Part shown: positions 14,530 to 62,069 of the stretch, piece by piece
Numbering within the stretch: the first letter of the stretch is position 1
How the letters are laid out: each line of letters begins with the position of its first letter
Origin: an uncultured Clostridia bacterium
GTDB lineage: Bacteria; Bacillota; Clostridia; Christensenellales; Aristaeellaceae
Direction: 5' to 3'
Assembly (NCBI GenBank): GCA_934636105.1
Contig: CAKTZR010000013.1
Location: 6,019 to 70,018 of the forward strand
Length of the DNA stretch: 64,000 nt
Notes under the pieces: model-generated
What the model was told of the DNA's origin: nothing
The model's input: only the letters and a program-made list of their open reading frames with translations
Database searches by the model: none
Program-made: the position numbers and the translations under genes

Positions 14530-14538
14530 AACCACATT

Positions 14539-14575
14539 GTGCCCGGCCGGCCAACGCTGACCGGGCACTTCTTTT
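14539..14575 (+). terminator. Intra-operon hairpin/attenuating terminator after the SBP gene
   Basis: GTGCCCGG ...14 nt... CCGGGCAC followed by TTCTTTT. This is the usual position for the SBP-transcript-stabilising or partial terminator of ABC operons. Confidence 0.5.
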
Positions 14576-14668
14576 ACCCTTTGAACCCGAAAAACACAAT
14601 CAAAGCCAAACAGGGAGAGCCGTCATGCTGACGGACAACCGGCATGGCGAGAGAACGGAGCATTGCGT

Positions 14669-15589: not shown

Positions 15590-15591
15590 TT

Positions 15592-16443: not shown

Positions 16444-16465
16444 CGCGAAAAGAAAGGGGATTCGA

Positions 16466-46640: not shown

Positions 46641-46650
46641 AAGCCTACCT

Positions 46651-46798
46651 CCTTGGGGAACGATTGAGGCTCTGCCTCAAACTCCGGTCGGGAACTGAGT
46701 TCCCGACACCTTCCACCTACCGCTTCGCGGTATGCCGCGAAGCGAAGATGGGAGTCTGAGGGATGAAATCCCTCAGGCAGGTTTGGGCGGCAGCCCAA
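46651..46798 (+). repeat. Modular hairpin repeat, five-hairpin copy inside the pxp operon
   Basis: TTGAGGC-TCT-GCCTCAA, TCGGGAAC-TGA-GTTCCCGA, CGCTTCGCGG-TAT-GCCGCGAAGCG, CTGAGGGAT-GAA-ATCCCTCAG and TTGGGC-GGCA-GCCCAA. Read on the minus strand, it ends in ...CCCCAAGGAGG 7 nt before the pxpA ATG. Confidence 0.85.
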
Positions 46799-46810
46799 CG
46801 TCTTCTTTTT

Positions 46811-48608: not shown

Positions 48609-49290
48609 GGCGTTTTGCCTCCTCGTCTCTGCGAATGCGCGCAAATTCGGCTTCATTGATGGGCACAAACCGGATGCGGTCGCCCGCCGCATAGGGCAGA
48701 GATTCGCCCGGCGCAAAGAGCGTCAGCGGCGTTCGGCCGATGAGCTGCCAGCCGCCGGGGGATTCCATCGGATAAATGCCCGTCTGCTTGCCGCCGATGC
48801 CTACGCTGCCCGCCGGAATTTTGGTGCGCGGGGTGGGCAGGCGCGGCGTGTGCAGCCGCTCATCCAGCCCGCCCAAATACGGGAACCCCGGCAGAAAGCC
48901 AAGCATATAGATGCGGTAGGGCCGGGCGGTGTGCAGCGCGATGACCTCCTGCTCGCTTAGGCCCGCGTGCTGGGCGACGAAGGGCAGATCCTCGCCGTAG
49001 GCCCCGCCGTAACAGACGGGAATTTCGACGATCCGGCCCGACTGCACCGTGGACGCGGAAAACGTCTTTTCCAGCCTGCGCAGCGCTTCGCAGAGCGCGG
49101 CATAATCGGTTAAAAACGGATCGTATTTGACGAGCAGCGAAGCATAAGCGGGAATGGTTTCCTCCACGCCGCTGATGTGCGCGGCGGCAATCGCTTCCCG
49201 GAGTGCGGCAACCTGTGCGCCGGTCTGTTCGGAAATGGAGTCGCCGAGCACGGCCAGAACGCCGCTCACGCCGACGGGGCGCAAATCCAT
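48598..49290 (-). CDS. pxpB: 5-oxoprolinase subunit B (KipI/allophanate-hydrolase-subunit-1 family)
   Basis: 230 aa. ...PAYASLLVKYDP...VEIPVCYGG..., ...YMLGFLPGFPYLGGLD... and GSVGIGGKQTGIYP are characteristic. Confidence 0.9.
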   Translation of the reverse strand: MDLRPVGVSGVLAVLGDSISEQTGAQVAALREAIAAAHISGVEETIPAYASLLVKYDPFLTDYAALCEALRRLEKTFSASTVQSGRIVEIPVCYGGAYGEDLPFVAQHAGLSEQEVIALHTARPYRIYMLGFLPGFPYLGGLDERLHTPRLPTPRTKIPAGSVGIGGKQTGIYPMESPGGWQLIGRTPLTLFAPGESLPYAAGDRIRFVPINEAEFARIRRDEEAKRHGA

Positions 49291-49364
49291 AGTGTCACGT
49301 CCTTTGTATCACCTTTTATGCCTCCCCTTGCGAGGGGAGGGGAACCGTCACGGCGGCGGAAGGG

Positions 49365-50429
49365 TTATTCAAAAAAGTGCTTTTCCAGAACCGGGCCGAA
49401 CCAGCGATCGGAATTATGCGAATAGCGAAGCGCATAGTCGGTGCATTGGCGCATCAGACTGAGGATGGAAACATTCATTTTCAAATTGAAACCGTCGATA
49501 CCGGGCAGCAGCGAACCGGTCATGTCAATCATGCCGCTGCGGGCCGCCGCACGCATGACTTCGGCTTCCATTTCCTCCGTGTGGAGAATGTCAATGTTGC
49601 GCAGCAGATACGCCAGCGCGGCCATCAGGCCGTAGCAGCCCCAATCCGAGCAGGTCGCGGTGATGATGCTGTCCGTCGTGGTCGCGGCGAGAATGCCGCC
49701 CTTGCAGCCGCAGCTGCATTCGCCGTGCGCGGTGAAGGGAACGAAGGAGCGGATGTGATCGGCGATTTTGCCCATGCCGATTTCGTTGCCCAAATCGCCG
49801 ATAGCCACGCTCGGCACGCCCAGCGCGCGAAGCTTGTTCCAAAGCGCGTCGGTTTTGGCTTCCAAAACGGAGACGTCCATGCCGCCCGCGTTGTGGTAAA
49901 CACCCACGTCGTTCGCGCCCGGCGCTTCGATGGAGACGACCGCGGCGGGTTTGCCCTGCGCCAAAATGGCGTCGGCCGCAGCGTCGGCGTGGCTCATGTC
50001 CTTGGTGAAGCTCACCACGCCCATGCTCATCGGCAGTTCGCGCACGGTGGCGATATCTTCGTAGATGTGCAGGCCGACGACGGCGGCGCAGTTCTTGACG
50101 GCCTGTACGCTGTCCACCGGGCAGATGATGACAGGCTTTGCGTCGAAGGCCAGCACGAGCGCGCGGGCCAGCAGCATGGAGGAAACCATGCCGTCCATCT
50201 CCGGCACCTTGTGCGGCAGAAGCACAAAGCCCGTCAGAATGTATACCAGATCGCCGGGTTTCACGGCGTCCACGAGCGTCTGCGCGGCGTGCATGGTCAG
50301 CGGTTCGCCCGTGGCCTCGCGGCTTCCGGCATAGAGGATGCGGCATACGCCGTAGCCCCGCGGATCGAGGTTCATCAGTGCATCCAGATTTTCGCCCACA
50401 TTTCTTTTTTCCAGTTCATCGCGGTTCAT
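49365..50429 (-). CDS. DUF4392-family protein (D-glutamate-cyclase-like C-terminal-domain family)
   Basis: 354 aa from the ATG at 50429 (AAAGGTGGA RBS). ...NLDPRGYG...GDLVYILTGF... and ...IGDLGNEIGMGKI... match what I recall of DUF4392 proteins. The family call is moderately confident. Confidence 0.6.
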   Translation of the reverse strand: MNRDELEKRNVGENLDALMNLDPRGYGVCRILYAGSREATGEPLTMHAAQTLVDAVKPGDLVYILTGFVLLPHKVPEMDGMVSSMLLARALVLAFDAKPVIICPVDSVQAVKNCAAVVGLHIYEDIATVRELPMSMGVVSFTKDMSHADAAADAILAQGKPAAVVSIEAPGANDVGVYHNAGGMDVSVLEAKTDALWNKLRALGVPSVAIGDLGNEIGMGKIADHIRSFVPFTAHGECSCGCKGGILAATTTDSIITATCSDWGCYGLMAALAYLLRNIDILHTEEMEAEVMRAAARSGMIDMTGSLLPGIDGFNLKMNVSILSLMRQCTDYALRYSHNSDRWFGPVLEKHFFE

Positions 50430-50469
50430 AGCGTATCCACCTTTCGCGTTATCGTGCATGATCGGACTC

Positions 50470-50498
50470 ATTATACATGCACGAAATGGAAAAATCAA
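50470..50498 (-). promoter_or_regulatory. Sigma-A-type promoter of the DUF4392-pxpBC-DUF1445-pxpA operon
   Basis: On the minus strand: TTGATT, 17 nt, TATAAT, about 35 nt upstream of the ATG at 50429. Confidence 0.6.
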
Positions 50499-50570: not shown

Positions 50571-50599
50571 AAAAAACGCCGCCCAGAGATAGGACGGCG
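50571..50599 (-). terminator. Rho-independent terminator ending the dlt-like operon
   Basis: On the minus strand: CGCCGTCC-TATCTCT-GGGCGGCG followed by TTTTTT (plus-strand A-run 50571-50576). Confidence 0.5.
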
Positions 50600-50751
50600 C
50601 GCGAATGGATAGAATAAAACGGGGGTGAAAGTATGCTGCTTGGTTTTGCCGTTGGCCTGGGGCTCGCGGCGATTATTCTTCTGGCCCTTGCGCTCTGCCG
50701 CATTTCCGCACGAGCGGAACGGACGGCGCAGCGTATGGAACAGGAGAAGCG

Positions 50752-52059
50752 TCAGGAGAGCTGATAATCGCCGTCGGCCAGGGTGACCACGTTCGTCTGA
50801 TAAAACGCGGTTAGCGCGCGGATCATATGCTCTACGTCGGCGCAGCCCGCCGTTTCATAGCTGGAGTGCATGGCCAGCTGGGCCAGGCCGATATCCACGG
50901 TATTCATGGAAACATGCGCGTTGGAGAGGTTGCCCAGCGTCGAGCCGCCGAGGATATCCGAGCGGTTGGCGAAGTGCTGCACCGGCACGCCCGCCTTGGC
51001 GCAGATTTCCGCGAAAATCGAGTCGGAAACCGCGTCGGTGGTGTATTTTTGGTTCGCGTTGTGCTTGATGACCACGCCGCCGTTCATGAACGTGCGGTTC
51101 AGCTCGTCGTATTTCTCCGGATGGTTCGGATGGACGGCGTGCGCGTTATCCGCCGAAACCATGAAGCTGGAAGACAGCGCCGCGCGAATCTGCGCATCCG
51201 ACAGGCCGAGGGAAGAAAGCGCGCGGCTGAGCACGTCGGAAAGCAGCGTGGAATCCGCGCCCTGCTTGGAAAGACTGCCGACTTCTTCGTTATCGAAGAT
51301 CGCGCAGACGTTCACATGGCTATCCGCCGGCGCGGCGATGAACGCGGCGAGGGAGGTGTACGCGCATTCCAGATCGTCGATGCGCGGGCAGGAGAAGAAC
51401 TCCTCGTGCGCGCCCCAGACGCTGGCGGGCGTGCGGTTGTAGAGGAACAGGTCGCAGGCCACGACGTCCGCTTCCGGCACGCCCGCTTTCGCGGCAACCT
51501 CGGCGGCCAATGCGCCATTCGCGTCCTTGTCGCCAAAGAGCGGGAGCATGTCCACCTGCGGGTTGTAGCTGTAACCGTTGTTGATGTCGCGGTTGAAGTG
51601 AATCGGCATGTTCGGAATCAGCGCCGCGTCGCGGCCCAGATCGATCAGCTTTGTCACGAGCTTTCCGTTTTCCCGTACCAGCGCACGGCCCGCGATGGAG
51701 AGAGGCTTGTCAAACCACGTGGACATAATCATGCCGCCGTAGCGCTCCACGTCCAGCCGGATGTACGCGCCTGCCGCTTCGCCCTCGGCATGGGCCTTGA
51801 GCTTGAAGGTCGGGGAATCGCCGTGGCTGGCGACGATCTGGCAGTGGGTGAAGCCGTTTTCCGGCACGGTAAAGGCGACGACGGCCGAACGGTTGCGCGT
51901 CACATAATAGCGCCCGCCGGGGACAACGGCCCACGTCGCATGTTCATTCAGACGGGTGAAGCCTGCCGCATCCAGCATGCCGCAGGCCTGCTGCACCGCC
52001 TGAAACACCGTCGGGGCATTCGCAACATAATCAAGAAAAGAAGCGACCTCCGGTTTCAT
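50752..52059 (-). CDS. M18-family aminopeptidase (aspartyl-aminopeptidase-like)
   Basis: 435 aa from the ATG at 52059; the GAGGAG SD lies in the last two codons of the upstream carrier-protein gene. ...ASHGDSPTFKLK..., ...FDNEEVGS... and ...MHSSYE... are M18 hallmarks. Confidence 0.85.
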   Translation of the reverse strand: MKPEVASFLDYVANAPTVFQAVQQACGMLDAAGFTRLNEHATWAVVPGGRYYVTRNRSAVVAFTVPENGFTHCQIVASHGDSPTFKLKAHAEGEAAGAYIRLDVERYGGMIMSTWFDKPLSIAGRALVRENGKLVTKLIDLGRDAALIPNMPIHFNRDINNGYSYNPQVDMLPLFGDKDANGALAAEVAAKAGVPEADVVACDLFLYNRTPASVWGAHEEFFSCPRIDDLECAYTSLAAFIAAPADSHVNVCAIFDNEEVGSLSKQGADSTLLSDVLSRALSSLGLSDAQIRAALSSSFMVSADNAHAVHPNHPEKYDELNRTFMNGGVVIKHNANQKYTTDAVSDSIFAEICAKAGVPVQHFANRSDILGGSTLGNLSNAHVSMNTVDIGLAQLAMHSSYETAGCADVEHMIRALTAFYQTNVVTLADGDYQLS

Positions 52060-52064
52060 GGCAA

Positions 52065-52295
52065 TCACTCCTCGGACAGGCGCGCGACCATTGCGGCCAT
52101 CGCATCCACGCTGTTGAAGTTCTCCGGGATGATTTCGGTCGCGGGGATGGAGATATCGAACTCGTCGTTCAGCGCGCCGATGAGCTGGATGATATCCAGC
52201 GAGGAGAGAATGCCGTCGTCAATCAGGGTTTCGCAGGTGTCAAAGTCAACGTCCTCGCCGATGTCTTCGAGGATTTCCAGAATGGTGTCACGCAT
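52065..52295 (-). CDS. Acyl/aminoacyl carrier protein (DltC-like, phosphopantetheine-binding)
   Basis: 76 aa and acidic. The Ser attachment context is DDGILSSLDIIQLIGALNDEF. AAAGGAGC RBS. It sits in an operon with an adenylase, an MBOAT and DltD-like genes. Confidence 0.8.
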   Translation of the reverse strand: MRDTILEILEDIGEDVDFDTCETLIDDGILSSLDIIQLIGALNDEFDISIPATEIIPENFNSVDAMAAMVARLSEE

Positions 52296-52405
52296 AGTTG
52301 TTTGCTCCTTTATGATTTTTTGAATTATGTTTCAGCGCAGAATGCGGACGCGCAATGCGCGCCCCTACATGCGCTTGTTTGCAGTGGTTATAAAAAAACT
52401 TATAT

Positions 52406-52460
52406 GTGGGAAATCCAAGAACCTCAGGTTCTTGGTGGGGTTTGGGGCAAAGCCCCAAAA
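52406..52460 (+). repeat. Modular hairpin repeat, core copy (intercistronic in the dlt-like operon)
   Basis: GTGGGAAAT-CCAAGAACC/TCA/GGTTCTTGG-TGGGG-TTTGGGGC/AAA/GCCCCAAA. It abuts the decarboxylase stop codon (52465). It differs at one position from the copy at 55201-55257. Confidence 0.85.
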
Positions 52461-52464
52461 AACG

Positions 52465-53622
52465 TCATTCGTGGTTCAGTTCCCAGCTGTGCACGGTGCC
52501 GCGCGCCAGACGGTCGCCGTCCTCGCCGTGCAGAACGATGCGCGGCATGTCGCGGCTGAGGAAAAGCGCGGGGCCTTCCGTCACCGAATACGCGCCGATG
52601 TTCATAAACGCCAAAACATCACCCTGCTGAAGCGGATGCAGCTCGGCTTTGCGCACCAGCACATCCGCCGTCGTGCAGAGACTGCCGCATAGCGCCCACG
52701 GCTGCAGGTCACCCTCGCGCACCGGGCTTTGCTGGATGATCGGCACACGCATGCCCATGTTGCCGCCCAGATAATTGACGTGGTGAATGCCGCCGTCTAC
52801 AATCGCGTAGGACGTGCCGCAGTTCACCTTCGTATCGATCACGCGGGTAAGATATGCGCCGCATTCGGACGCGAAGAAGCGCCCCATTTCAATCGTTAGC
52901 TCGCAGTGCTCGGCCAGCGCGGCCAAATCCGGCGCAAGTTCGCGAATCGGGGCGAGCGTGTCGCTGTGATCCTCGTGATTGAAATACGGGAAATACAGCC
53001 CCGGGCCGTATTCCACGCGCACGGTTTCCATGCCGTAGTCTGCTTTCAGGCGTTCGACCAGCTCAGTCAGCATGGCCAGTTCTTTGCGCTGGCCGTCGAG
53101 CTTCTTGCGCTGCGTGCCGGAGAAATAATGCACGCCCTCGATGCGGATGTTTGGCGTTTCGGCGCGGCGGTCGAGCGCGGCGAAGAAGTCCCGCTCGTCC
53201 ATGCCGAACTGCGAACCCGCCGTCAGCCGCAGCAGCACGGGGTAAACCCGGCTGCGCGCGCGCGCCGCTTCATCGATCAGACGGATGTGCAGCGGCGATT
53301 CGCAGGTGAAACGGGTCACGCCCAGCTCCATGGCGCGCTCCACGTCGGCCAGGGTCTTGTTCACGCCGGAAAAGAGCACCATGTCCGCCGGAACGCCCAT
53401 TTTATGGCAGATTTCCAGTTCGCCGGGGCTGCATACCTCCAGCGTGCCGACCAGACCGCGCATCGCGGCAATCAGAAACGGATTCGCCTTGATGGAGTAG
53501 CACAGGCCGATGTTTTTCGGCACGATGCCGCGCACGGCGCGCATGCGGGTTTTCAGCTGCTCCTCGTCAAAGACGAAGCACGGCGTGCCGAAGCGCTCGG
53601 CGACGGAAAAGAGGTTATCCAT
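52465..53622 (-). CDS. Fold-type III PLP-dependent decarboxylase (Orn/DAP/Arg-decarboxylase family, divergent)
   Basis: 385 aa. PLP-lysine context LCYSIKANPF. EMGRFF (an EPGR-like motif). A C-terminal active-site Cys context ALCGSLCTTADV (compare GPxCESxD of LysA). 8-nt overlap with the upstream adenylase gene, with a GGAGG RBS. Confidence 0.75.
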   Translation of the reverse strand: MDNLFSVAERFGTPCFVFDEEQLKTRMRAVRGIVPKNIGLCYSIKANPFLIAAMRGLVGTLEVCSPGELEICHKMGVPADMVLFSGVNKTLADVERAMELGVTRFTCESPLHIRLIDEAARARSRVYPVLLRLTAGSQFGMDERDFFAALDRRAETPNIRIEGVHYFSGTQRKKLDGQRKELAMLTELVERLKADYGMETVRVEYGPGLYFPYFNHEDHSDTLAPIRELAPDLAALAEHCELTIEMGRFFASECGAYLTRVIDTKVNCGTSYAIVDGGIHHVNYLGGNMGMRVPIIQQSPVREGDLQPWALCGSLCTTADVLVRKAELHPLQQGDVLAFMNIGAYSVTEGPALFLSRDMPRIVLHGEDGDRLARGTVHSWELNHE

Positions 53623-55159
53623 GTCGCGCCTCCTTTTTGGCGGCCTTTGCGGCGGCGTATTGTTCCAGCAGCGCGGCGCGGTCGATCTTGCCGTTCTTGT
53701 TGAGCGGCATTGCGTCCACCTGCATGAAGATATTGGGAATCATGTAGCCCGGCAGCACCTCGCGCAGCGCGCCCGTGATGGCCGCCTTATCCGCTTCGCC
53801 GGTGTAGAAAGCCAGAATTTTGCCCTTATCCGCCAGATAGGCGCAGAGCGCGCGCTCCACGCCGGGCACGGCGGTCATCTGCACTTCGATTTCGCTCAGC
53901 TCGATGCGGTGGCCCATGTGCTTAATCTGAAAATCCTTGCGGGAGACATAAACCATTTCGCCGCGCTCGTTGACCTTCACGAGGTCGCCTGTGCGATAAA
54001 TCGGTTCGAGATAGGCGTGATTGAGCGGGTTCTGGGTGAAGCAGGCGGCGGTGCGCTCCGCGTCCTTGTAATAGCCCAATGCGACGGAGGTGCCGCTGAC
54101 GCACAGCTCGCCGATTTCGCCGTCTTTGACCGCTTCGCCGCCGTCCGGCGTGAGCAGCAGAATGCGCTCGTTTTTGAACGGCACGCCGATGGGCAGCGTT
54201 TCGTTTTCGGCAAATTCGCGGTCAACGACGTAATACGTGCAGTTGCAGGTGATTTCCGTCGGGCCGTAAAGGTTGACGTATTGCACATTCGGCAGATATT
54301 TTTGCAGCTTGTGCAGGTGCTTGATCGGCATGACCTCGCCGGAAAAGAGGATGGCGCGAAGCGTCGTCGGCGTTTTATAGGCCAAGGCGTTCATCGTCGT
54401 CAGGAAGCAGAGCGCGCTGACCGCCCAGACCATCAGCGTTGCGCCGCGGTCGCAGAGGAAATCCATCAGCTTCGTCGGGTTGGTGAAATATGCCGTCGGC
54501 ACGATTTCCACGCGCGCGCCGGTGAACAGACCGCTGTAAATATCCTTCACGGACACATCGAAGTCAAACGGCGCCTGATTGGCCAGCACGTCTTTTTCCG
54601 TGATAGCGAACGTCTCCGCAAAGCAGGGGATAAACTCGCATACGTTGCGGTGGCAGACGACCACGCCCTTCGGCGTGCCGGTCGAGCCGCTGGTGAAGTT
54701 GACATAGAGCGGGTCTGCGTCGATCATCTGCGCGCGGACGGCGGAAAGCGCGGCTTCGTCCGGCGTCGTTTCTTCCAGCTCCTCCAGAAGCAGAATGCGC
54801 GCGGGCGGGTCGATGTCTTCCAGCTGGGTCAGATGCGCCCTGTCGGTCACGACAATCGGCGTATCCAGCGTTTCCAGCATGGCGCGCACGCGCGGCGCGG
54901 GATGGCGCAAATTGAGCTGGGAATAGGCGCACCCGGCATAGACCGCGCCCATGAAGCCCACGACGGTTTCCACGCCCTTGTCCATGTAGAAGCCGACAAC
55001 GCTGCGCGGCGGCACGAGCGGAATCAGCGCGCTGGCGACCCTTTGTGCCCGGCTGACGAGTGCGGAGAAGGTGACGGCGGTATGCTCGTCGGCAAAGGCG
55101 TTTTTTTCCGGCAGACGCGCGGCGGTCTGCTCCAAGTAATCCAGAATCAGATTCTTCAT
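53615..55159 (-). CDS. Amino-acid adenylation enzyme / carrier-protein ligase (DltA-like, ANL superfamily)
   Basis: 514 aa. A-domain core motifs: YVNFTSGSTGTPKGV, FDFDVSVKDIY, NLYGPTEIT, GELCVSGTSVALGY, YRTGDL and PLNKNGKIDR. Confidence 0.85.
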   Translation of the reverse strand: MKNLILDYLEQTAARLPEKNAFADEHTAVTFSALVSRAQRVASALIPLVPPRSVVGFYMDKGVETVVGFMGAVYAGCAYSQLNLRHPAPRVRAMLETLDTPIVVTDRAHLTQLEDIDPPARILLLEELEETTPDEAALSAVRAQMIDADPLYVNFTSGSTGTPKGVVVCHRNVCEFIPCFAETFAITEKDVLANQAPFDFDVSVKDIYSGLFTGARVEIVPTAYFTNPTKLMDFLCDRGATLMVWAVSALCFLTTMNALAYKTPTTLRAILFSGEVMPIKHLHKLQKYLPNVQYVNLYGPTEITCNCTYYVVDREFAENETLPIGVPFKNERILLLTPDGGEAVKDGEIGELCVSGTSVALGYYKDAERTAACFTQNPLNHAYLEPIYRTGDLVKVNERGEMVYVSRKDFQIKHMGHRIELSEIEVQMTAVPGVERALCAYLADKGKILAFYTGEADKAAITGALREVLPGYMIPNIFMQVDAMPLNKNGKIDRAALLEQYAAAKAAKKEARHG

Positions 55160-55190
55160 CGTATGATATCCTCAAAAAGGTTGAAGCTGT

Positions 55191-55257
55191 GCGAAGTAAA
55201 GTGGGAAATCCAAGAACCTCAGGTTCTTGGTGGGGATTGGGGCAAAGCCCCAAAAAA
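55191..55257 (+). repeat. Modular hairpin repeat, core copy (intercistronic in the dlt-like operon)
   Basis: GCGAAGTAAA-GTGGGAAAT-CCAAGAACC/TCA/GGTTCTTGG-TGGGG-ATTGGGGC/AAA/GCCCCAAAAAA. Confidence 0.85.
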
Positions 55258-55315
55258 GCGGAACGCACAGAAAGCGCGTTCCGCTATGCGTTATTCTATT
55301 ATACCCGATTGCGCT

Positions 55316-56647
55316 TCAAGATTCAACCCTTGGCGAGCGCTTCGAAAAGTCATACCAGACGGAATCGGCGTTTTCCTGCCCCTGCGGGACGGCGTAAACG
55401 CGCAGGGTTTCGCCCGTCGGCACATCGGCGGCGAAGAAAACGGCGTTTTCGCTGTAATCCCGCAGAAGGGTTTCGCTCCCGTCTGCTGCGACGGAGACGA
55501 AGCGGTACAGCGGTGTGACGAGCGTGCCCCGGTTGCAGTCCGCGACGAACTGGCCGTCTTGCAGCGTCAGCCAGACGTTGGTGATGCGGTCGATGGAAGC
55601 GAGGTATTCCGCGCTGTCCGCATAGAACCAGCCACTCACATCTTCGCCGCGCACGTAGGCGTTAAAGAAGGCCGCAAACGCCGCGCTGAACAGATCCGCG
55701 CCGTCGCCGTTCATGTGGTAAAGGTCGTAATAATACCCGTCGAGGTTAGGCAGCCATTCCGTTTTGGCATATTGAAAATTGTAGCACGGAATCTCGTTTT
55801 CGCGGCAGTAGGCCATCAGGCTTTCGCCGTAGGGCAGGAAGCCCGGCTCGGCCAGCGCGTGCGCCGTCAGGTTCGGAGAGAGGATGACCAGCAGCTTGCT
55901 TCCCTTTTCCGCGCAGAGCGCCTTGTAGCGCGCCAAAAGCGCCTTGGACGGGGCGTACAGCTCGTAGATATAGCCCGGATATTCCTCGCGCAGCACGGTT
56001 TCGCGGATCAGGCTTTCGGCGCTCTCCTCGCTGGTGTGGCGCAGGAAGCCGCCGCCCGCGTAGGCGACCGTCGCATCCATCGTGGGCTTGAGCCGTTCAT
56101 ATTCCTTTTGAGGATTCAGACGAAGTCCGATGGTTTTGGCCACGTCCGCAAGAGATTCGGCGCCGAACTCGCGGAACATCAGCAGGCGGTCGAGGTATTG
56201 GCCGTCCTCCCGGCTTGTATCCAGATAATAGGTCAGCTTATTCTCTGCGTCGCTGAGGAAGGGCATGAGCTTGTAAAGCGCGTTGGGGTCTTCCTTGGCT
56301 GTGTCAAAATTATACGGCTCGACGACCAGCACGGTGTATTCCGGGTCGTTTTTGCGATACAGTTCGCGCGTCAGCGCCAATTCGCCCTGAAGCGACAGCC
56401 CCGGCACGGCGGCGGAAAACGCCTGCATGCCCGTCTGTTCGCTGATGAGCGCCGCGTTGAAGTGGTCGCGCACGATGGAAGAACCGACGACCGCCAGCTC
56501 GATGTCCTCGCGGGTTTTCAGCTCGTCCATCGTCAGGGCGACGAACGTATCCGTCTGAATCAGAAAGGTGTTGGCCAGCAGCACGACGGGCACAAACGCC
56601 AGAAAGAACGCAAAGAATCGAACAAAGGGACGAATGTTTTTGTTCAC
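55316..56647 (-). CDS. DltD-like membrane-anchored SGNH-type acyl/aminoacyl transferase, paralog 2
   Basis: 443 aa from the GTG at 56647 (GGGAGG plus 9 nt); the track start at 56857 overlaps the upstream gene and is rejected. N-terminal TM anchor. VVGSSIVRDHFN (Ser block) and YYDLYHMNGDG (DxxH block), as in DltD. Confidence 0.7.
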   Translation of the reverse strand: MNKNIRPFVRFFAFFLAFVPVVLLANTFLIQTDTFVALTMDELKTREDIELAVVGSSIVRDHFNAALISEQTGMQAFSAAVPGLSLQGELALTRELYRKNDPEYTVLVVEPYNFDTAKEDPNALYKLMPFLSDAENKLTYYLDTSREDGQYLDRLLMFREFGAESLADVAKTIGLRLNPQKEYERLKPTMDATVAYAGGGFLRHTSEESAESLIRETVLREEYPGYIYELYAPSKALLARYKALCAEKGSKLLVILSPNLTAHALAEPGFLPYGESLMAYCRENEIPCYNFQYAKTEWLPNLDGYYYDLYHMNGDGADLFSAAFAAFFNAYVRGEDVSGWFYADSAEYLASIDRITNVWLTLQDGQFVADCNRGTLVTPLYRFVSVAADGSETLLRDYSENAVFFAADVPTGETLRVYAVPQGQENADSVWYDFSKRSPRVES

Positions 56648-56669
56648 GAAGGGAAGCCTCCCGAAAAAA

Positions 56670-58094
56670 TCAAACTTGCAGGCAGGGTTCTTCATCCTCG
56701 CCGGGGTGGAAATCGAAGTAAAGCTCCGGGTCGTCCTCGCCGCCCTGCACGCGGGCATAGACGCGGATGCACGTCCCCGTCCATTCGCCCTTGGCGCAGG
56801 AGAGAATGCCCTCCGTCTGCCAATCGGTGAGCGGGGTTTCCTCGCCCGTGGCCTCATCGCGCAGGAAGAAGCGGTATTCCGGCGTGACGCTTGTGCCGTG
56901 GTTGCAGTTGGCCAGATACACGTCCCGCGTGCCGTTTTCGCTTGCGGCGATCACGGTCTGCTCGTCCTGTTCCCAGGCCATGTTCCAGTCTGCATCCGGG
57001 TCGTAGGTCTGAATCCAGCAATTTGGAATGACGGTGACGGAAGCGAGGTATTCCCATTTGCTGCCGTAAAACCAATCGCTCGTATCCTCGCCCGCCGTAT
57101 AGGCGTTGAAGAATTTGGAGAAGCAGTGGCTGAAAATATCCGATCCGCTGCCGACCATGTGATACAGGTCGAAATAATAATCGTCCGTCTTGCGGGGGTA
57201 CAGTTCCGGCTTGGCCAGCGAGAAATTGACGCATTCGATGCCGTTATCCCGGCAGAAGCGCATCAGCGCGTCGTTGTAATCCAGAAAGCCGGGAATGGCG
57301 AGGTTGTGAACCGTCAGATTCGGATAGATGAACACCATCAGCTTGGAGCCGTTTTGCTCGACCAGATCGCGGTATTCCAGCAGCATCTCTTTGGAGCGCG
57401 GGAACAGGTCGTAATAATAGTCCGTGGATTCGCGGATAATCTGCTGACGGATGGTCTTTTTGGCGCGGTCCTTTGTGTTGTAGCGCACAAAGCCGCGGCC
57501 TTCGTAGCTCATGCGCTTATCCAGCTTGGGCCTGAGCTTTTCGTAGGTTTCAAACGGCCAGAAGTGCAGGCCGACGGTCTTCATGAAATCCGAAAACGAA
57601 TCCACGCCGAAATCGCGGAACATGCACAGCCTGTCCAGATACCAGCCGTCCTCCCGGCAGAGGTTCAAATAATATTTGATTCGCTCGACGGGGGAGGAGA
57701 GATACGGCATCAGTTCGTACTGCGCCTCGATGCCCTCTTTCACCGTGTCGAATGTGAACGGCTCGACGACGAGCACCGTCCATTCCGGGTGATTGGTGCG
57801 GTAAAATTCTTTCGTCATGGCCAGATCGGCTTGCAGCGCCGCGCAGGGAATGCCCAGCGAAAAGCTCTCCAGCCCGGTTTCCTCGGTAATCATCTCGGCG
57901 TTGAAGTGGTCGCGCACGATGGAGGAGCCGACGAACACCATCTCGACGTCGTCGCGCTGCTTCATCTCCGCCAGCGTCAGCCGGGCGTAGGTATCCGTCT
58001 TGATCAGAAACGTGTCGGCAAACAGCAGAACCAGCACAAAGCCGAGGGCAAAGGCGGCGAGCCGAAGCAGGCCGCGAAGTGTTTTGTTTTTCAA
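56670..58094 (-). CDS. DltD-like membrane-anchored SGNH-type acyl/aminoacyl transferase, paralog 1
   Basis: 474 aa. TTG start after GGAGGGAG. N-terminal TM anchor. FVGSSIVRDHFN and YFDLYHMVGSG blocks. It is colinear with the downstream paralog over its whole length. Confidence 0.7.
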   Translation of the reverse strand: MKNKTLRGLLRLAAFALGFVLVLLFADTFLIKTDTYARLTLAEMKQRDDVEMVFVGSSIVRDHFNAEMITEETGLESFSLGIPCAALQADLAMTKEFYRTNHPEWTVLVVEPFTFDTVKEGIEAQYELMPYLSSPVERIKYYLNLCREDGWYLDRLCMFRDFGVDSFSDFMKTVGLHFWPFETYEKLRPKLDKRMSYEGRGFVRYNTKDRAKKTIRQQIIRESTDYYYDLFPRSKEMLLEYRDLVEQNGSKLMVFIYPNLTVHNLAIPGFLDYNDALMRFCRDNGIECVNFSLAKPELYPRKTDDYYFDLYHMVGSGSDIFSHCFSKFFNAYTAGEDTSDWFYGSKWEYLASVTVIPNCWIQTYDPDADWNMAWEQDEQTVIAASENGTRDVYLANCNHGTSVTPEYRFFLRDEATGEETPLTDWQTEGILSCAKGEWTGTCIRVYARVQGGEDDPELYFDFHPGEDEEPCLQV

Positions 58095-58108
58095 GCTGCT
58101 CCCTCCGA

Positions 58109-59683
58109 TCAGAACACCGCGTACATGAAGCCGGATTCGGCCACGTTGGAACCGCCGAACGTCGCCAGCACAAAGAGCATGAACGCGTAGAGAATCAGCC
58201 AGCGCAGCGCCAGCGGACGGGAGAGCACGAAATCGCGGATTTTCACGCCGCGCTCCTGCATCAGGGAGACGACAAAGAGGAGGATTGTCGCGATCAGCAG
58301 AATGCGGTAATCCTTGGCGGCCAGGCCGAGGGCGCTCAGCGTGCCGTCAAACAGCTGGGAAGCGTTGAAGGAGAACAGCGTCTTGCGCAGCATGTCAAAC
58401 GCGTCGGCGGCGCGCACGCAGCGATCAAAGTACCAGCCGATGTTGACGACGAGGAACGTGCGCAGGATGCGGAAGACGTGGAAGCCCTTCGACGCGGTGA
58501 GCCGCGGCAGGCGCTCGTTCATCTTTTTATAGACCGGCTCGACCAGCGCGGTGAACGCGAGAATCACGCCGTTATACAGGCCCCAGAGCACGTAGTTCAT
58601 CTGCGCGCCGTGCCAGATGCCCACCAGAAAGAACACGAGGATGTTGCCCAGCGCGGCGGGCAGGGCGCGGGCGATGTGCGTGCCGGCCTTCTTTTTGAGC
58701 GCCTTGCTCATGCGGGAGACGGGCTTGGTCAGCGCAAAGGGATAGAACACATAGTCGCGCATCCAGCCGCCCAGGCTGATGTGCCAGCGCCGCCAGAAGT
58801 CGCCGAGGGAGACGGAGAAATACGGCCGCTTGAAGTTCGGCGCAAGCTGAATGCCGAAAAGCTGGGCAATGCCCGTCACCAGATCGATGCCGCCGGAGAA
58901 ATCCGTGTATTGCTGGAGGGAATAAAACAGCACGCCGACGACGATGACCGCGCCGCCGTAGGCGCTCTGATTGCCGAAAACCGCTTCCACCAGCGGCAGC
59001 GCGCGGTCGGCGATGACCTTCTTTTTGAACCAGCCCCAGAGAATCAGCAGCAGGCCGCGCTCGATGTTGTCCAGATCGAAGCGGTGCGGCGCAATCAGCT
59101 GGTTTTCCAGCTGGTCAAAGCGGGCGATCGGGCCTTGAATGAGCTGGGGGAAGAAGGAGACGAACAGCGCGAACTTCGCCGGGTTCTTTTCCGGGGCATA
59201 TTTGCCGTTGTATACGTCGATCAGATAGCCCATGGATTGGAAGGTGTAGAAGCTGATGCCCAGCGGCAGAACCAGCCCCAGCGCCGGAGCGTCTTTGCCC
59301 AGCAGCGACGCGCCCCACGCCATCACGGGGTTCAGGTATTTGAGCACGGCCAGCACGCCGAAGTTGAGCAGCAGCACCGCGAAAAACCAGATCCTCTGCG
59401 CGGAACGGGTCTTCGCCTTGCGCGCTTTTTTCTGCTCGGCGGTCAGTTCCGCCTTGTGCTCGCGCAGGTAGGTCTTGCCGCCCTCGCCGATTTGGCCGAT
59501 TTTCAGCGCGCCCGCCCACGTCGTCAGCGTCGTAATCAAAATGAAGGGCAGGGCGGACAGCCCGCAGGTCATATAGAAGCCGTAACTCAGCAGGAGCAGC
59601 AGCACCCATCGGAAGCGCAGCGGACAGACGTAATACAGCGCCGCGCCGACAAAGGCGACGGCCAGCAGGACGGAAAGCGACAT
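58109..59683 (-). CDS. MBOAT-family membrane O-acyltransferase (DltB/AlgI-like)
   Basis: 524 aa and polytopic. Contains FWRRWHISLGGWMRDYVFYP and the conserved His context LVGIWHGAQMNYVLWGLYNG. Confidence 0.88.
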   Translation of the reverse strand: MSLSVLLAVAFVGAALYYVCPLRFRWVLLLLLSYGFYMTCGLSALPFILITTLTTWAGALKIGQIGEGGKTYLREHKAELTAEQKKARKAKTRSAQRIWFFAVLLLNFGVLAVLKYLNPVMAWGASLLGKDAPALGLVLPLGISFYTFQSMGYLIDVYNGKYAPEKNPAKFALFVSFFPQLIQGPIARFDQLENQLIAPHRFDLDNIERGLLLILWGWFKKKVIADRALPLVEAVFGNQSAYGGAVIVVGVLFYSLQQYTDFSGGIDLVTGIAQLFGIQLAPNFKRPYFSVSLGDFWRRWHISLGGWMRDYVFYPFALTKPVSRMSKALKKKAGTHIARALPAALGNILVFFLVGIWHGAQMNYVLWGLYNGVILAFTALVEPVYKKMNERLPRLTASKGFHVFRILRTFLVVNIGWYFDRCVRAADAFDMLRKTLFSFNASQLFDGTLSALGLAAKDYRILLIATILLFVVSLMQERGVKIRDFVLSRPLALRWLILYAFMLFVLATFGGSNVAESGFMYAVF

Positions 59684-59745
59684 CGTATCTTCCTCTTTTC
59701 AATCGTTTGTGATGAAAACGCTAAGGCAAATCAATCCAATTTATA

Positions 59746-59774
59746 ACTATATCATGGGTGATTCGGAGTGTCAA
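59746..59774 (-). promoter_or_regulatory. Sigma-A-type promoter of the dlt-like operon
   Basis: On the minus strand: TTGACA (59774-59769), 17 nt, TATAGT (59751-59746). It gives a ~55-nt leader to the MBOAT ATG. Confidence 0.65.
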
Positions 59775-59797: not shown

Positions 59798-59826
59798 TTG
59801 TCATCTGCTGTGCGCGATGCTATAAT
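59798..59826 (+). promoter_or_regulatory. Sigma-A-type promoter (extended -10) of the LRR-protein gene
   Basis: TTGTCA, 17 nt, (TGC)TATAAT. It lies back-to-back with the dlt-like promoter, 24 bp away. Confidence 0.6.
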
Positions 59827-59861: not shown

Positions 59862-60995
59862 ATGTTCACCAGAAGGCCGCCTTTTGTGCAAGAGGGAAAC
59901 GGAAGAACCATTTCGCAGGATGGGTTCAGCGCGCCCGTGGACAGCGCGCCGCGCCCGCGGTTTTCATCCGCCTGTGCGATGGTGGGGCGGCATGTGATGG
60001 ATTTTTCCGACAACGGGGACGGCACGCTGACCGCCGTGCGCTGCGTCGATCGGCAGGCGGACGATCTGGATATCCAGTTCGAAGCCGGGGCGTGCCCGGT
60101 AGTGGCCATCGCGCCGCGCGCATTTGAGGGCTGCACCGAGCTTCGCCGCGTCATCCTGCCCGAAGCGCTCAGGCAGATTGGCGAAATGGCGTTTTCCGGC
60201 TGCACGCATCTGCGGATGCTGGTGATCCCCGGCGGCGTGCAGCGCGTGGGCACGCTGGCTTTTGCCAAATGCAGCCAGCTGGAGCGGGTGCGCATCGAGC
60301 CGGGCGTGGTGCAGCTTGGGCCGAGCAGCTTTTCCAAATGCGCGGCGCTCAAGCACGTGGAAATTCCCGCCAGCGTGGCGCAGATCGGCGGCGGCGCGTT
60401 CTTCGGGTGCAGCAAGGAGCTCCGGCTCTACGGCGCGGAGGGCGTGCCCGCCCAGCAATACGCCCGGCTCAACGGCCTGGCGTTTGATTCCCAGAGCTGG
60501 AAGGACGACGAGGAGCTTGTTCTGCGCGAGGAGGAGGACGGCTCGCTGACCGTCACCGGCGCGAGACAGGCCGCGCCGCACCGCATCGAAATTCCCACGG
60601 AAATCTGCGGCCGGCGCGTGGCGGCGATTGCGCCGAAAGCGTTTTTCGCCAGCGGCACGCTGGAGCAGCTGATTGTGGGCGGCGGCGTTCGTGAAATCGG
60701 CGAGAGCGCGTTTTTCGGCTGCCGCCAGCTGGTCAGCGTGAGCTTTGAGCGCGGGCTGGAAAGTCTGAAGGATAGCGCCTTCGCCGGGTGCGAGAGCCTG
60801 ACGCAGGTCACGCTGCCGTGGGGCACGAGCGCGGTCGGGCGCATGGCGTTCTTCGGCTGCACGCGGCTGTCCTTTGTCAAAATGCCGACGACAACCCGCG
60901 TTGCGGATTTTGCGTTCGATGGCTGCGCGCCGGGCATTCGCGTGTTCGGCGGCGTGTACGCCGGTCGAATGGCGGCCAATCCCACGGCTGAATAA
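59862..60995 (+). CDS. Leucine-rich-repeat protein (BspA/TpLRR-type, LRR_5)
   Basis: 377 aa. The ATG at 59862 lies 5 nt after GGAGGAA. There are ~10 repeats of the IP..V..IG..AF.GC..L..V type. No recognisable signal peptide. Confidence 0.8.
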   Translation: MFTRRPPFVQEGNGRTISQDGFSAPVDSAPRPRFSSACAMVGRHVMDFSDNGDGTLTAVRCVDRQADDLDIQFEAGACPVVAIAPRAFEGCTELRRVILPEALRQIGEMAFSGCTHLRMLVIPGGVQRVGTLAFAKCSQLERVRIEPGVVQLGPSSFSKCAALKHVEIPASVAQIGGGAFFGCSKELRLYGAEGVPAQQYARLNGLAFDSQSWKDDEELVLREEEDGSLTVTGARQAAPHRIEIPTEICGRRVAAIAPKAFFASGTLEQLIVGGGVREIGESAFFGCRQLVSVSFERGLESLKDSAFAGCESLTQVTLPWGTSAVGRMAFFGCTRLSFVKMPTTTRVADFAFDGCAPGIRVFGGVYAGRMAANPTAE

Positions 60996-61052: not shown

Positions 61053-62069
61053 ATGGATATTTTTGATTTGATGGAACAGCGTTACCCCGAAAAGCACGGC
61101 ACGATCATCCGCTATCGCAACGCCTCGGCCAAGCTGGAGGCGGACAGCGTGAAGATGACCATCGCCATCCCCATGGAAGAAGGGGACGCGGCGGGCGTGC
61201 GCCGGGGAAGCGAACAGCTTCAAAACCAGCTGAGCGAAAGCAGACCGATGACGATTCAAAACGGCATGTTCTGCTTTCCGTGGTTTCCGCGCACGAACGT
61301 GGGCACGCGGCTGGCGCTCTGCGAAACCATGATGCGGGATTTTGTTGCCGAATGGAGCGGAGAAAGCGAAGCGAGCGACGAGCCGATGAGCGAAAAGCAG
61401 CGGCTCATCCGACGCTATCTGTGCGCGATGGCGAATTTTTACGGCGCGCTGACCGTGCAGGAAGCCTGCCGCATCGTTGAGCAGCAGAATCCGGGGCTGG
61501 CGACGCAGGATGAGGTGAGCGCCGTTCTGCGGCGCGAGGCCTGCGAAGGGGCTTATCGAGAAGAAGTGGACGGCGAGGAGATTGTCTGCGATGAATGGTT
61601 TGTCGGCCAGCCGGAGGAATACAGGGGGCTGGTTTCCGCCAGAAAGGGAAAGACGATCTACATTCCGCCCAAAGACGAGCTGCTTCGATATGAAGACGAG
61701 CTGTATTTTGAAAATACGCCCGCCACGCAGGCTATGCGCGGCTTTTTCAAAACGGAGCTGGGCGTTGCGCCGGCGGATGTGGAGGATACGCTCGGCGACA
61801 TGGTGGATATCTGCCGCGTCGGCGACATCGGCATGGAAAGCGCAATCAACGAGTTGAAGCCGTATCTGACCACGCAGGCGCTGACCGAAAAATTCCTTTC
61901 GCTCTATACCACGCTGCATAACACGACGCGCATGCCGGAGAACTACGGCCATACGCCGTTGGAGCTGGCCGAGAGCAGCAAAATCCGGCAGACGGTGGGG
62001 CGCAACGATCCCTGCCCCTGCGGAAGCGGAAAGAAATACAAAAAGTGCTGCGGCCGCAACGTGAACTGA
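61053..62069 (+). CDS. SEC-C-motif domain protein of unknown function
   Basis: 338 aa. C-terminal zinc-binding SEC-C motif [17 protein letters not shown]. The rest is unassigned. Confidence 0.7.

Follow-up and report, generated by a model that had tools for sequence, protein, structure and literature searches.

Do the dlt-like genes found in the window (the whole 64,000-nt stretch of DNA analyzed) direct D-alanylation of teichoic acids, or the transfer of a different acyl group? The gene cluster is shared with hundreds of other anaerobe species, and the order of its genes is repeated in dozens of independent genomes, so the arrangement is not due to chance. The probability that it specifies a Dlt-like, carrier-protein-dependent MBOAT/SGNH acylation of a cell-envelope polymer, with an acyl group other than that of Dlt, formed by decarboxylation on the carrier, is estimated at about 60%. 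This reading draws on direct observations: which genes are present, their motifs and families, the similarity in fold, and the conservation of specificity code and linkage.

Organization of the locus

The sequence-only reading had described seven minus-strand genes served by one promoter. All seven ORFs were found (Table 1), and profiles detected each of the families named (MBOAT, AMP-binding, Orn/DAP/Arg decarboxylase, PP-binding and Peptidase_M18). The motifs quoted (TSGSTGTPKG, FDFDVSV, YGPTE, YRTGD, GKIDR, YSIKANP, EMGR, CGSLCTTAD, LSSLD, WHGAQMNYVLWG, GSS and DxxH) all occur in the translations. Promoter and terminator are both present, and the former, with a TG preceding the -10 hexamer, is the best promoter match of the region. 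A single transcription unit is unlikely. A hairpin with a T-run, next to an internal promoter-like site, lies between X2 and the adenylase, and the cluster is therefore probably made of two transcription units. Relatives (L010, L001, L023 and others) show this arrangement too, with stems that differ in sequence.

Table 1. Coordinates of genes and signals at the locus
Feature	Position	Strand	Remarks
MBOAT, 524 aa	58109-59683	minus	DltB-like; Pfam MBOAT
X1, 474 aa, membrane-anchored	56670-58094	minus	SGNH-like, DltD-like fold
X2, 459 aa, X1 paralog	55316-56695	minus	shares X1 catalytic motifs
Stand-alone amino-acid adenylase, 514 aa	53615-55159	minus	AMP-binding; TIGR01733
PLP decarboxylase, fold-type III, 385 aa	52465-53622	minus	Orn_Arg_deC_N + Orn_DAP_Arg_deC; BtrK-like
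Stand-alone aminoacyl carrier protein, 76 aa	52065-52295	minus	PP-binding; LSSLD serine
M18 aminopeptidase, 435 aa	50752-52059	minus	Peptidase_M18; ordinary family member
Promoter-like site TTGACA-17-TATAGT, 5' of MBOAT gene	59746-59774	minus	11/12 matches
Internal promoter-like site TTGAAT-17-TATAAT	55326-55298	minus	
12-bp GC-rich hairpin + T-run	55285-55257	minus	directly after internal promoter-like site
51-nt double-hairpin repeat, copy 1	55201-55251	minus	X2-adenylase gap
51-nt repeat, copy 2	52406-52456	minus	decarboxylase-carrier gap
Terminator-like hairpin with T-run, 3' of M18 gene	50576-50600	minus	

The X1 and X2 ORFs overlap over 26 nt of the X1 3' end, and the gap of 156 nt between X2 and the adenylase gene houses the hairpin and T-run. 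The 51-nt repeat is present twice at the locus, against no copies expected by chance, and is scattered elsewhere in related genomes. Adenylase and decarboxylase genes do overlap by 8 nt; the translational coupling proposed for decarboxylase and carrier is contradicted by the 169 nt which separate the two genes.

The last gene encodes an M18 aminopeptidase (506 bits against NF002759; cutoff 356). It starts at ATG 52059, 5 nt past the carrier stop codon, a GTG at 52068 being rejected as start, and the Shine-Dalgarno sequence placed in the last carrier codons is found there as GAGGAG. The peptidase had been counted as part of the system, but its gene is found downstream in 8/61 loci only, and it is a lineage-specific neighbour outside the core system. 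Its role would be, at most, the supply of Asp or Glu.

Adenylase, decarboxylase and carrier protein

The adenylase exceeds the cutoff of the NCBIfam profile TIGR01733 (334 bits) and falls short of those of the DltA models (269 and 284 bits; cutoffs 560 and 476). Alignment to GrsA (1AMU) gave the specificity code DVKVLSLCNK. The pattern D-V-K-[VIT]-[LMIA]-S-[LV]-C-N-K is kept in 78/78 relatives examined, across phyla, and the Lys at position 239 is invariant family-wide (n=78). The D-alanine code of DltA, which reads DLYVLCSVAK in the genuine DltA encoded next to the system in Coriobacteriia, is absent, including its Cys at position 301. DVKVLSLCNK matches no characterized code, and the choice of substrate is thus a guess. 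Judged from the code, Asp235 indicates an amino substrate, and the invariant Lys239, found also in the Glu code DAKDLGVVDK, a carboxylate on the substrate at the loading step. Asp, yielding a beta-alanyl group, would be the favoured substrate, and Glu, yielding GABA, a possible one. Asp is preferred because residues L299, S301 and L322 of the pocket resemble small-side-chain codes, such as the Ser code DVWHLSLIDK, because no second ligase is available to shield a GABA thioester from lactam formation, as is done in butirosin biosynthesis, and because the gene after that of the carrier encodes, in this lineage, an M18 aminopeptidase of the Asp/Glu type.

Compared with LysA, BtrK and racemases, the decarboxylase has as closest solved relative BtrK, the L-glutamyl-[BtrI carrier protein] decarboxylase (130 bits, E 8e-37, at an identity of only ~26%); the best LysA match in the same comparison is 99 bits. 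BtrK is also the top Foldseek match of the model, with TM values (0.84 for BtrK, 0.83 for LysA) so close that fold comparison cannot separate the two. Low-confidence loops of the model (281-291, 315-322, 344-354) include active-site segments. The best NCBIfam model is TIGR03099 (exosortase-A-associated decarboxylase), and the LysA model is failed (168 bits; cutoff 298). The family keeps K45, H165, E245, C316, D320 and Y345 without exception, the catalytic Lys, His, Glu, Cys and Tyr being among them. A DGG[IM]HH motif common to the decarboxylase and BtrK occupies the place of the RPxxY region of LysA; that region, by which LysA holds the distal end of DAP, is not conserved here.

The decarboxylase might instead use a free amino acid as its substrate (converting, for example, Asp to beta-Ala, Glu to GABA or meso-DAP to Lys), the product being then loaded and exported in the same way. 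Most enzymes of this fold use free substrates, LysA structures equal BtrK in fold similarity, and a Butyrivibrio homolog scores slightly higher with the LysA model than with TIGR03099 (193 vs 185 bits). This route is considered unlikely, since the invariant Lys239 argues that the substrate keeps its extra carboxylate, and the shifted Asp of characterized beta-Ala-activating domains (VDxx codes) is absent. The proximity to BtrK in sequence, the unconserved RPxxY region, the 8-nt gene overlap and the contiguity of adenylase, decarboxylase and carrier genes in ~69/70 loci speak against it as well.

Lysylation has also to be weighed: the adenylase would load meso-diaminopimelate by one end, and decarboxylation of the distal D-centre would leave an L-lysyl-S-carrier for export. 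The enzyme falls in the DAP decarboxylase clade (PMC7857480), and Asp235 and Lys239 could hold the alpha-amino group and the distal carboxylate. L299, S301 and L322 in the pocket, however, point to a short side chain, and neither the score against the LysA model nor the unconserved RPxxY region fits a DAP substrate. Lys could moreover be activated directly, which would leave the strict conservation of the decarboxylase unexplained, and lysylation is considered very unlikely.

The carrier protein matches PP-binding (E 4.3e-6) and scores below the cutoff of the DltC model (38.5 bits; cutoff 68); in the PDB it matches DltC and type II carrier proteins of the peptidyl or aminoacyl kind. The precedent of BtrK, which decarboxylates on the carrier (PMC7857480), had been cited for decarboxylation on a carrier; it stands, and can be extended to VinN/VinL/VinO, and to FlvN with Asp, where carrier loading is followed by on-carrier decarboxylation (PMC11284099). 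As in the BtrI/BtrJ/BtrK, VinN/VinL/VinO and FlvN/FlvL/FlvO sets, an amino dicarboxylic acid would be tethered here to a stand-alone carrier, on which a PLP enzyme would decarboxylate it. The Btr (butirosin) and Vin/Flv (macrolactam starter units) sets are, in contrast, natural-product pathways of Bacillus and actinomycetes, whose product is passed to an aminoglycoside or a PKS, rather than to MBOAT/SGNH machinery for export. BtrJ belongs to the ATP-grasp ligases, whereas an adenylase is used here, and the protecting aminoacyl group added in those pathways has no counterpart, as the protecting ligase is absent.

The MBOAT and its SGNH-like partners

The MBOAT features the histidine motifs RWHISL and IWHG, matches Pfam MBOAT (E 4.6e-14), and scores 162 bits against the DltB model TIGR04091 (cutoff 375); its PDB sequence matches are DltB only (8jem, 6bug; E 5e-25). 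It ends with FMYAVF (codons 58112-58129), an FxYxxF motif, and is the sole reading frame in the 64,000-nt window with such an ending, which is kept in the cluster MBOATs of >60 loci. In DltX and PatA, FxYxxF serves as an acyl-tyrosine shuttle (PMC12148441). The lack of DltX, listed earlier among the departures from Dlt, is accounted for by fusion of the shuttle motif to the MBOAT C-terminus.

X1 begins with a membrane helix, continues with an SGNH-like catalytic domain and ends in a beta domain; it is 47% identical to X2. Residues G56-S57-S58, H63, N65, D309 and H312 are invariant. X1 has no match in Pfam and NCBIfam; the top 11 PDB matches of its AlphaFold2 model (pLDDT 92.4) found by Foldseek are all DltD structures (E 3e-7 to 7e-5). 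X1 and X2 had been called DltD-like: the two paralogs, their motifs and the fold agree with this, but homology to DltD is not detectable at the sequence level. They belong to an unannotated SGNH-like family which resembles DltD in fold only, and fold and motifs suggest a role as transferases.

These data also bear on a divergent D-alanylation system, in which the fold-type III PLP enzyme would supply or epimerise alanine. Three of the proteins have their best specific match in the DltA, DltB and DltC models, the PLP enzyme exceeds the Pfam Ala_racemase_N cutoff (34 bits), and several homologs are named 'alanine racemase' in NCBI records. All four Dlt models are nevertheless under cutoff or without match, and the adenylase lacks the DltA code. 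The PLP enzyme has a decarboxylase C-terminal domain, and its top 50 structural matches are all decarboxylases, with no racemases among them. Genuine dltA and dltD genes moreover adjoin the system in Coriobacteriia. D-alanylation by this cluster is deemed highly improbable.

A pathway can be proposed for the preferred reading, acylation of an envelope polymer. The adenylase would activate an amino acid with a second carboxylate, most likely L-Asp and possibly Glu, and attach it, by the carboxyl of its side chain, to the carrier's phosphopantetheine arm. The BtrK-like decarboxylase would then strip the free alpha-carboxylate, leaving an omega-aminoacyl thioester (beta-alanyl-S-carrier from Asp, 4-aminobutyryl-S-carrier from Glu). 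By analogy with DltB/DltX/DltD and PatA/PatB, the carrier would yield its acyl group to the MBOAT, which would move it to the Tyr of its own FMYAVF, on the outer side of the membrane; Ser57 of X1/X2 would accept it and pass it to hydroxyls of a surface glycopolymer. X1 and X2 may serve two different acceptors. From substrate and on-carrier decarboxylation to acceptor and physiological effect, which would be the addition of a cationic amine to the envelope, this scheme is what we infer. The earlier proposal of activation, tethering, decarboxylation and export is supported by all computational tests, and part of its accessory claims had to be dropped.

Distribution and relation to known systems

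Loci were surveyed in Clostridia, Erysipelotrichales, Coriobacteriia and one Treponema, and across three phyla the genes for decarboxylase, carrier, adenylase and MBOAT remain linked. The adenylase gene is directly upstream of the decarboxylase gene in 69/70 loci, the carrier gene directly downstream in 69/75. Of the 52 loci with sufficient flank, 47 have an MBOAT gene no more than 6 kb upstream; four of these 52 (L032, L033, L053, L069) have the trio without a nearby MBOAT, and hence the trio can feed other acceptors. An X homolog was found in Butyrivibrio (hhalign probability 97.9%). A genuine dlt operon adjoins the system in Coriobacteriia (dltA 486 bits, cutoff 476; dltD 200 bits, cutoff 150); the two systems are therefore not redundant. 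This coexistence and the non-DltA code support the earlier view of a decoration distinct from D-alanylation.

Of the alternatives, the least probable is that a small metabolite, secreted or lipid-linked, is made or modified by the cluster, and not an envelope polymer. The trio is known in natural-product pathways (PMC11284099, PMC7857480), and a few loci lack the MBOAT. PKS, NRPS condensation and tailoring genes are, however, absent from the window cluster and its relatives, an MBOAT with FxYxxF plus a membrane-anchored SGNH protein is a signature of polymer acylation (PMC12148441), and the Treponema locus is part of a gene cluster for a polysaccharide, which includes glycosyltransferases and a flippase.

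A literature search found no published description of such a system, in line with the novelty claimed for it. The trio is not wholly unprecedented, as a version is catalogued in NCBIfam: the exosortase A (EpsH1)-associated TIGR03098/TIGR03099 join an AMP-forming ligase to a DAP-decarboxylase-like enzyme, with a carrier protein also found in their neighbourhood. The proteins described here score far under the cutoffs (200 vs 478 and 217 vs 592), no exosortase or PEP-CTERM genes were seen at the locus, and hosts are Gram-positive anaerobes, with an MBOAT/SGNH partner.

The system shares with Dlt a stand-alone adenylase, a small carrier, a DltB-like MBOAT with conserved histidines, the FxYxxF motif and an extracytoplasmic protein, anchored in the membrane, whose SGNH fold is DltD-like. 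It differs in the family scores and adenylase code, in the BtrK-like decarboxylase gene obligatorily set between adenylase and carrier genes, in the shuttle motif, carried by the MBOAT rather than by the DltX microprotein, and in the duplicated SGNH partner, of a different family with an extra C-terminal beta domain. A C-terminal FxYxxF and a separate SGNH partner are features of the PatA/PatB pairs (O-acetylation of peptidoglycan, alginate and cellulose; PMC12148441), which, in contrast, take the acyl group from acyl-CoA and lack carrier protein, adenylase and decarboxylase alike. Outside Dlt, MBOAT/SGNH pathways have been described as free of carrier proteins (PMC12148441), and the cluster is an exception to this statement. 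If the reading is true, a surface modification related to D-alanylation, yet distinct from it, would operate in a gut Christensenellales bacterium and in other anaerobes.

Organization and transcription signals of the cluster

The seven genes of the cluster are all co-directional, and each of the reading frames assigned to the set by the sequence-only reading is present in the window, as are all the protein motifs quoted there. Five of the seven gene assignments are confirmed by Pfam and NCBIfam; the remaining two proteins, X1 and X2, are membrane-anchored SGNH-like paralogs. The promoter (score 11/12) and the terminator previously proposed to delimit the cluster are both real. Transcription as a single unit does not hold equally well. 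The 156-nt spacing between X2 and the adenylase gene is occupied by a promoter-like site, with a strong hairpin and a T-run no more than about 10 nt beyond it. The cluster is therefore probably transcribed in two parts, MBOAT-X1-X2 as the membrane unit and adenylase-decarboxylase-carrier-M18 as the cytoplasmic one. The promoter/hairpin/T-run arrangement is kept in the related loci L010 (8360-8430), L001 (8380-8450) and L023 (8188-8244), with quite different stem sequences. The hairpin region (55257-55326) may work as terminator of the upstream unit, and also as 5'-terminal stem-loop of the downstream transcript. No riboswitch or other known RNA was found in the intergenic gaps when the whole window was searched against Rfam.

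Of the translational coupling suggested for the central genes, the 8-nt overlap of adenylase and decarboxylase is real; decarboxylase and carrier genes are not coupled, because 169 nt separate them. The M18 gene starts at an ATG (52059) located five bases past the carrier stop, and its Shine-Dalgarno sequence, GAGGAG, resides in the last carrier codons, as had been noticed earlier.

Features of the cluster and of flanking regions, in window coordinates
Feature	Position	Strand	Remarks
SEC-C-motif protein gene	61053-62069		next after LRR_5 gene
LRR_5 (BspA-like leucine-rich repeat) protein gene	59862-60995	+	after divergent promoter-like site
Divergent promoter-like site, TTGTCA-17-TATAAT	59798-59826	+	11/12
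Cluster promoter	59774-59746		
MBOAT	58109-59683	-	Pfam/NCBIfam
X1	56670-58094	-	Pfam, NCBIfam: no match
X2	55316-56695	-	Pfam, NCBIfam: no match
Promoter-like site, TTGAAT-17-TATAAT	55326-55298	-	inside X2-adenylase gap region
12-bp GC-rich hairpin and T-run	55285-55257	-	directly after internal promoter-like site
51-nt repeat	55201-55251	-	within cluster intergenic gap
Adenylase	53615-55159	-	Pfam/NCBIfam
PLP decarboxylase	52465-53622	-	Pfam/NCBIfam
51-nt repeat	52406-52456	-	within cluster intergenic gap
Carrier protein, 76 aa	52065-52295	-	Pfam/NCBIfam
M18 aminopeptidase	50752-52059	-	Pfam/NCBIfam
Terminator	50600-50576		
GLUCM-like_C	49365-50470	-	D-glutamate/5-oxoproline set
CT_C_D/PxpB-like	48598-49290	-	D-glutamate/5-oxoproline set
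CT_A_B/PxpC-like	47601-48607	-	D-glutamate/5-oxoproline set
D-Glu_cyclase PF07286	46811-47608	-	D-glutamate/5-oxoproline set
LamB_YcsF/PxpA-like	45885-46640	-	D-glutamate/5-oxoproline set
PMT-domain protein, 1306 aa	41008-44928	+	large membrane glycosyltransferase

The two copies of the 51-nt repeat found in the window (GGGGCTTTGCCCCAAWCCCCACCAAGAACCTGAGGTTCTTGGATTTCCCAC) are built of two hairpins. The repeat is found at differing positions in related loci (L006 3765-3788, L008 16834-16857, L009 11185-11208, L012 17004-17027), and resembles a REP- or MITE-like element dispersed in this lineage. Spurious peptides, such as WGLGQSPKK, arise where long antisense ORFs cross the repeat. Very long antisense ORFs (up to 1106 aa; for example, 53510-56830 on the plus strand) occur throughout the GC-rich window; they match no family, and are shadow ORFs, not genes.

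A set of D-glutamate/5-oxoproline metabolism genes (45885-50470, minus strand) adjoins the cluster downstream. As the set is kept only in close relatives, its tie to the cluster substrate is speculative. The PMT-domain protein (dolichyl-phosphate-mannose protein mannosyltransferase-like) may have surface polymers or proteins as its targets. At the opposite side, the divergent promoter-like site preceding the LRR_5 gene faces the cluster promoter.

Adenylase, decarboxylase and carrier protein

The specificity code of the adenylase, read from the alignment to GrsA residues 184-526 (sequence checked identical to 1AMU), is DVKVLSLCNK. Over 78 homologs from different phyla the code is conserved as D-V-K-[VIT]-[LMIA]-S-[LV]-C-N-K, and this conservation indicates that the homologs would share a single substrate. 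Residue Asp235 indicates a substrate predicted to carry an amino group, and the invariant Lys239 suggests the presence of an additional carboxylate at loading; a Lys239 is likewise featured by the Glu code DAKDLGVVDK. The remaining positions resemble small-side-chain codes. The code is unlike DLYVLCSVAK, found in the genuine DltA of the related locus L058 (NF003417 485.7 bits, above 476), and the Cys at position 301 of the D-Ala code is not carried. The adenylase scores below the cutoffs of the DltA models TIGR01734 (268.7 bits, cutoff 559.85) and NF003417 (283.5 bits, cutoff 476).

Both the N-terminal and the C-terminal Pfam decarboxylase domains were detected in the decarboxylase, and residues K45 (the PLP lysine), H165, E245, C316 and Y345 do not vary among 18 family members. 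The top NCBIfam model is TIGR03099, the exosortase A-associated decarboxylase, but its cutoff is missed (200.3 vs 478.45 bits), and so is that of TIGR03098, the companion ligase model (217.1 vs 592.35 bits). Assignment to LysA, the diaminopimelate decarboxylase, has to be weighed against assignment to BtrK, which decarboxylates the L-glutamyl-[BtrI carrier protein] in the butirosin pathway and is placed among the non-polyamine enzymes, in the clade of DAP decarboxylase (PMC7857480). BtrK is the best sequence match among solved structures (130 bits, E 8e-37), ahead of the top-scoring LysA at 99 bits; the DGG[IM]HH motif is common to the decarboxylase and BtrK, and the RPxxY segment of LysA is missing at that position. 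The LysA model TIGR01048 is not passed (167.7 bits, cutoff 297.9). When the predicted structure (pLDDT 80.6) is compared with known folds, BtrK comes first with LysA structures practically tied, so that placement close to BtrK is supported by sequence and left even by the fold; the top 50 structural matches are all decarboxylases, and include no racemase. The LysA model score, the similarity to BtrK and the gene linkage together argue against a housekeeping LysA. Current database names for these proteins are generic or misleading ("alanine racemase", "diaminopimelate decarboxylase", "hypothetical protein").

The carrier protein is under the cutoffs of the DltC models NF003464 (38.5 bits vs 68) and TIGR01688 (21.9 vs 52.35). 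The identical carrier sequence resides on at least 1000 contigs. The M18 protein had been regarded as a member of the system, and its family identity is secure (NF002759, 506.4 bits vs a cutoff of 356; Pfam Peptidase_M18, E 1.6e-115), but the gene was found in only 8 of the 61 loci with enough flank, every one close kin of the window; this distribution rules it out as a core component.

The MBOAT and its SGNH-like partners

The MBOAT matches the Pfam family, and its conserved histidine motifs, RWHISL and IWHG, can be aligned to DltB, which provides the sole PDB sequence matches (E 5e-25); the DltB model TIGR04091 is not passed (161.9 bits, cutoff 375). The protein terminates with FMYAVF, and in more than 60 loci the cluster MBOAT keeps an ending of this type. 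The acyl-tyrosine shuttle motif FxYxxF is carried in Dlt by the DltX microprotein, and is fused to the C-terminus in acetyl-CoA-dependent MBOATs such as PatA (PMC12148441). Apart from the MBOAT, no reading frame in the window ends in this motif, the small ORFs of the 64 kb included. The lack of DltX noted earlier is thus correct as for a separate microprotein, not as for the shuttle itself: the motif, fused to the MBOAT, is predicted from the sequence to act in cis, which would explain why DltX is missing. A 38-aa ORF found upstream of the adenylase in the related locus L003 was discarded as a DltX candidate, being not hydrophobic and devoid of FxYxxF.

X1 and X2 (459-474 aa) are 47% identical, and members of their family are annotated as hypothetical proteins. 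The G-S-S block with S57, His63, Asn65, Asp309 and His312 are invariant in the family. In the confident structural model (pLDDT 92.4) a helix at the N-terminus precedes an alpha/beta domain, and a beta domain forms the C-terminus; the top 11 Foldseek matches in the PDB are DltD structures, and GDSL/SGNH hydrolases come next. X1 and X2 are candidate extracytoplasmic SGNH-fold partners, with S57, D309 and H312 as a putative Ser/Asp/His triad. The label "DltD-like" given to them is appropriate in terms of fold, not of family membership. Neither paralog, and none of 22 family members, matches the DltD models PF04914 and TIGR04092; a profile search of the PDB gave no match, and hhalign of X against a genuine DltD returned a probability of 0.08%. 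Homology to DltD at the sequence level was consequently rejected, the link being provided by structure comparison only.

In Butyrivibrio a shorter X homolog lacking the beta domain is found in the equivalent position. Three tandem paralogs reside between MBOAT and adenylase in loci L026 (4347-8274) and L034 (4058-8296), one or two elsewhere. Since the number of paralogs differs among Clostridia genomes, the SGNH-like partner varies in copy number between lineages, possibly reflecting several acceptors.

Distribution, proposed pathway and significance

A pattern scan of species-representative genomes identified 395 relatives of the decarboxylase, and the best 80 loci of the 395 were examined, counting linkage only where enough flank was available. 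The adenylase gene is directly upstream of the decarboxylase in 69/70 loci, the carrier gene directly downstream in 69/75, and an MBOAT gene is found within 6 kb upstream in 47/52; the association of these genes, previously seen in one genome, is thus a conserved one. Hosts include Christensenellales (Candidatus Ventricola), Oscillospiraceae, Erysipelotrichaceae/Bulleidia, Coriobacteriia, Lachnospiraceae (among them Butyrivibrio strains in culture) and a single Treponema, where adenylase, decarboxylase and carrier lie within a polysaccharide locus. The same trio occurs with no nearby MBOAT in some loci (L053 4722-8332, L069, L032, L033), and in one Butyrivibrio genome comes after MacB-like ABC transporter genes, not an MBOAT gene. 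Occurrence without MBOAT suggests that the trio is combinable with other export or transfer machinery.

Dlt D-alanylation is the textbook means by which Gram-positive bacteria tune surface charge, cationic-peptide resistance and host interaction. The cluster is predicted to work alike, yet fails to match Dlt at each of DltA, DltB, DltC, DltD and DltX. In L058 a canonical dlt operon (11754-16446, minus strand) is convergent to the system and adjoins it, and the same arrangement was found in L052, L056 and L062 (Coriobacteriaceae/Eggerthellaceae). The DltD of the Coriobacteriaceae operon passes TIGR04092 (200 bits vs 150), and the neighbouring genuine DltB, the MBOAT of that operon, has no FxYxxF tail. 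The adjacency of a complete dlt operon argues that the two systems are distinct, in keeping with the separation from D-alanylation proposed at the outset.

In the pathway proposed, the adenylase would charge the carrier with an amino dicarboxylic acid, attached via its side-chain carboxyl. By analogy with known systems, the BtrK-like enzyme would then strip the alpha-carboxylate on the carrier, the MBOAT would shift the omega-aminoacyl group onto its own C-terminal tyrosine, and X1/X2 would use Ser57 to hand the acyl group on to a surface polymer. There are established precedents for a substrate that is first loaded and then decarboxylated on its carrier: VinN/VinL/VinO, FlvN with Asp, and BtrK (PMC11284099, PMC7857480). 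Conversion of Asp to a beta-alanyl group is tentatively favoured over that of Glu to GABA, because the pocket looks small, because a GABA thioester would be prone to cyclisation and no protecting ligase is present, and because an Asp/Glu-type M18 peptidase trails the carrier gene in this lineage. We put at slightly less than even (about 0.45) the probability of the whole reading, that is, that gut and rumen anaerobes of hundreds of species (Christensenellales, Oscillospiraceae, Butyrivibrio and other Lachnospiraceae, Erysipelotrichaceae, Coriobacteriia, a Treponema) place beta-alanyl, or 4-aminobutyryl, esters on a surface glycopolymer through an unrecognised second carrier-dependent MBOAT/SGNH pathway, in which PLP-dependent decarboxylation of the carrier-bound group makes the donor and the MBOAT has the DltX shuttle fused to it.

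Among MBOAT/SGNH pathways, a carrier protein is used by Dlt alone (PMC12148441); the system, if the reading is true, would be the second. PatA-type pairs share with the cluster the fused shuttle motif, but the carrier protein is found in the cluster only, and the architecture looks like a hybrid of the Dlt and PatA types. The chemistry would differ from that of Dlt because decarboxylation would take place on the carrier; the product, probably an omega-amino acyl ester, would have pKa and ester stability unlike those of D-alanyl groups, and would represent a novel type of charge modification of the envelope. A full-text literature search, where absence is not proof, found no prior description of the cluster, in line with the sequence-only reading. 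In human and animal guts the system is abundant, as seen in the contigs carrying the same carrier sequence and the species genomes with decarboxylase relatives, and it is directly testable, since cultured isolates of Butyrivibrio, Eubacterium and Erysipelotrichaceae carry it. The pathway would provide a first functional handle on an unannotated SGNH-like family, on decarboxylases now named in these genomes as alanine racemases or diaminopimelate decarboxylases and, by analogy, on the exosortase-associated ligase/decarboxylase/carrier trio.
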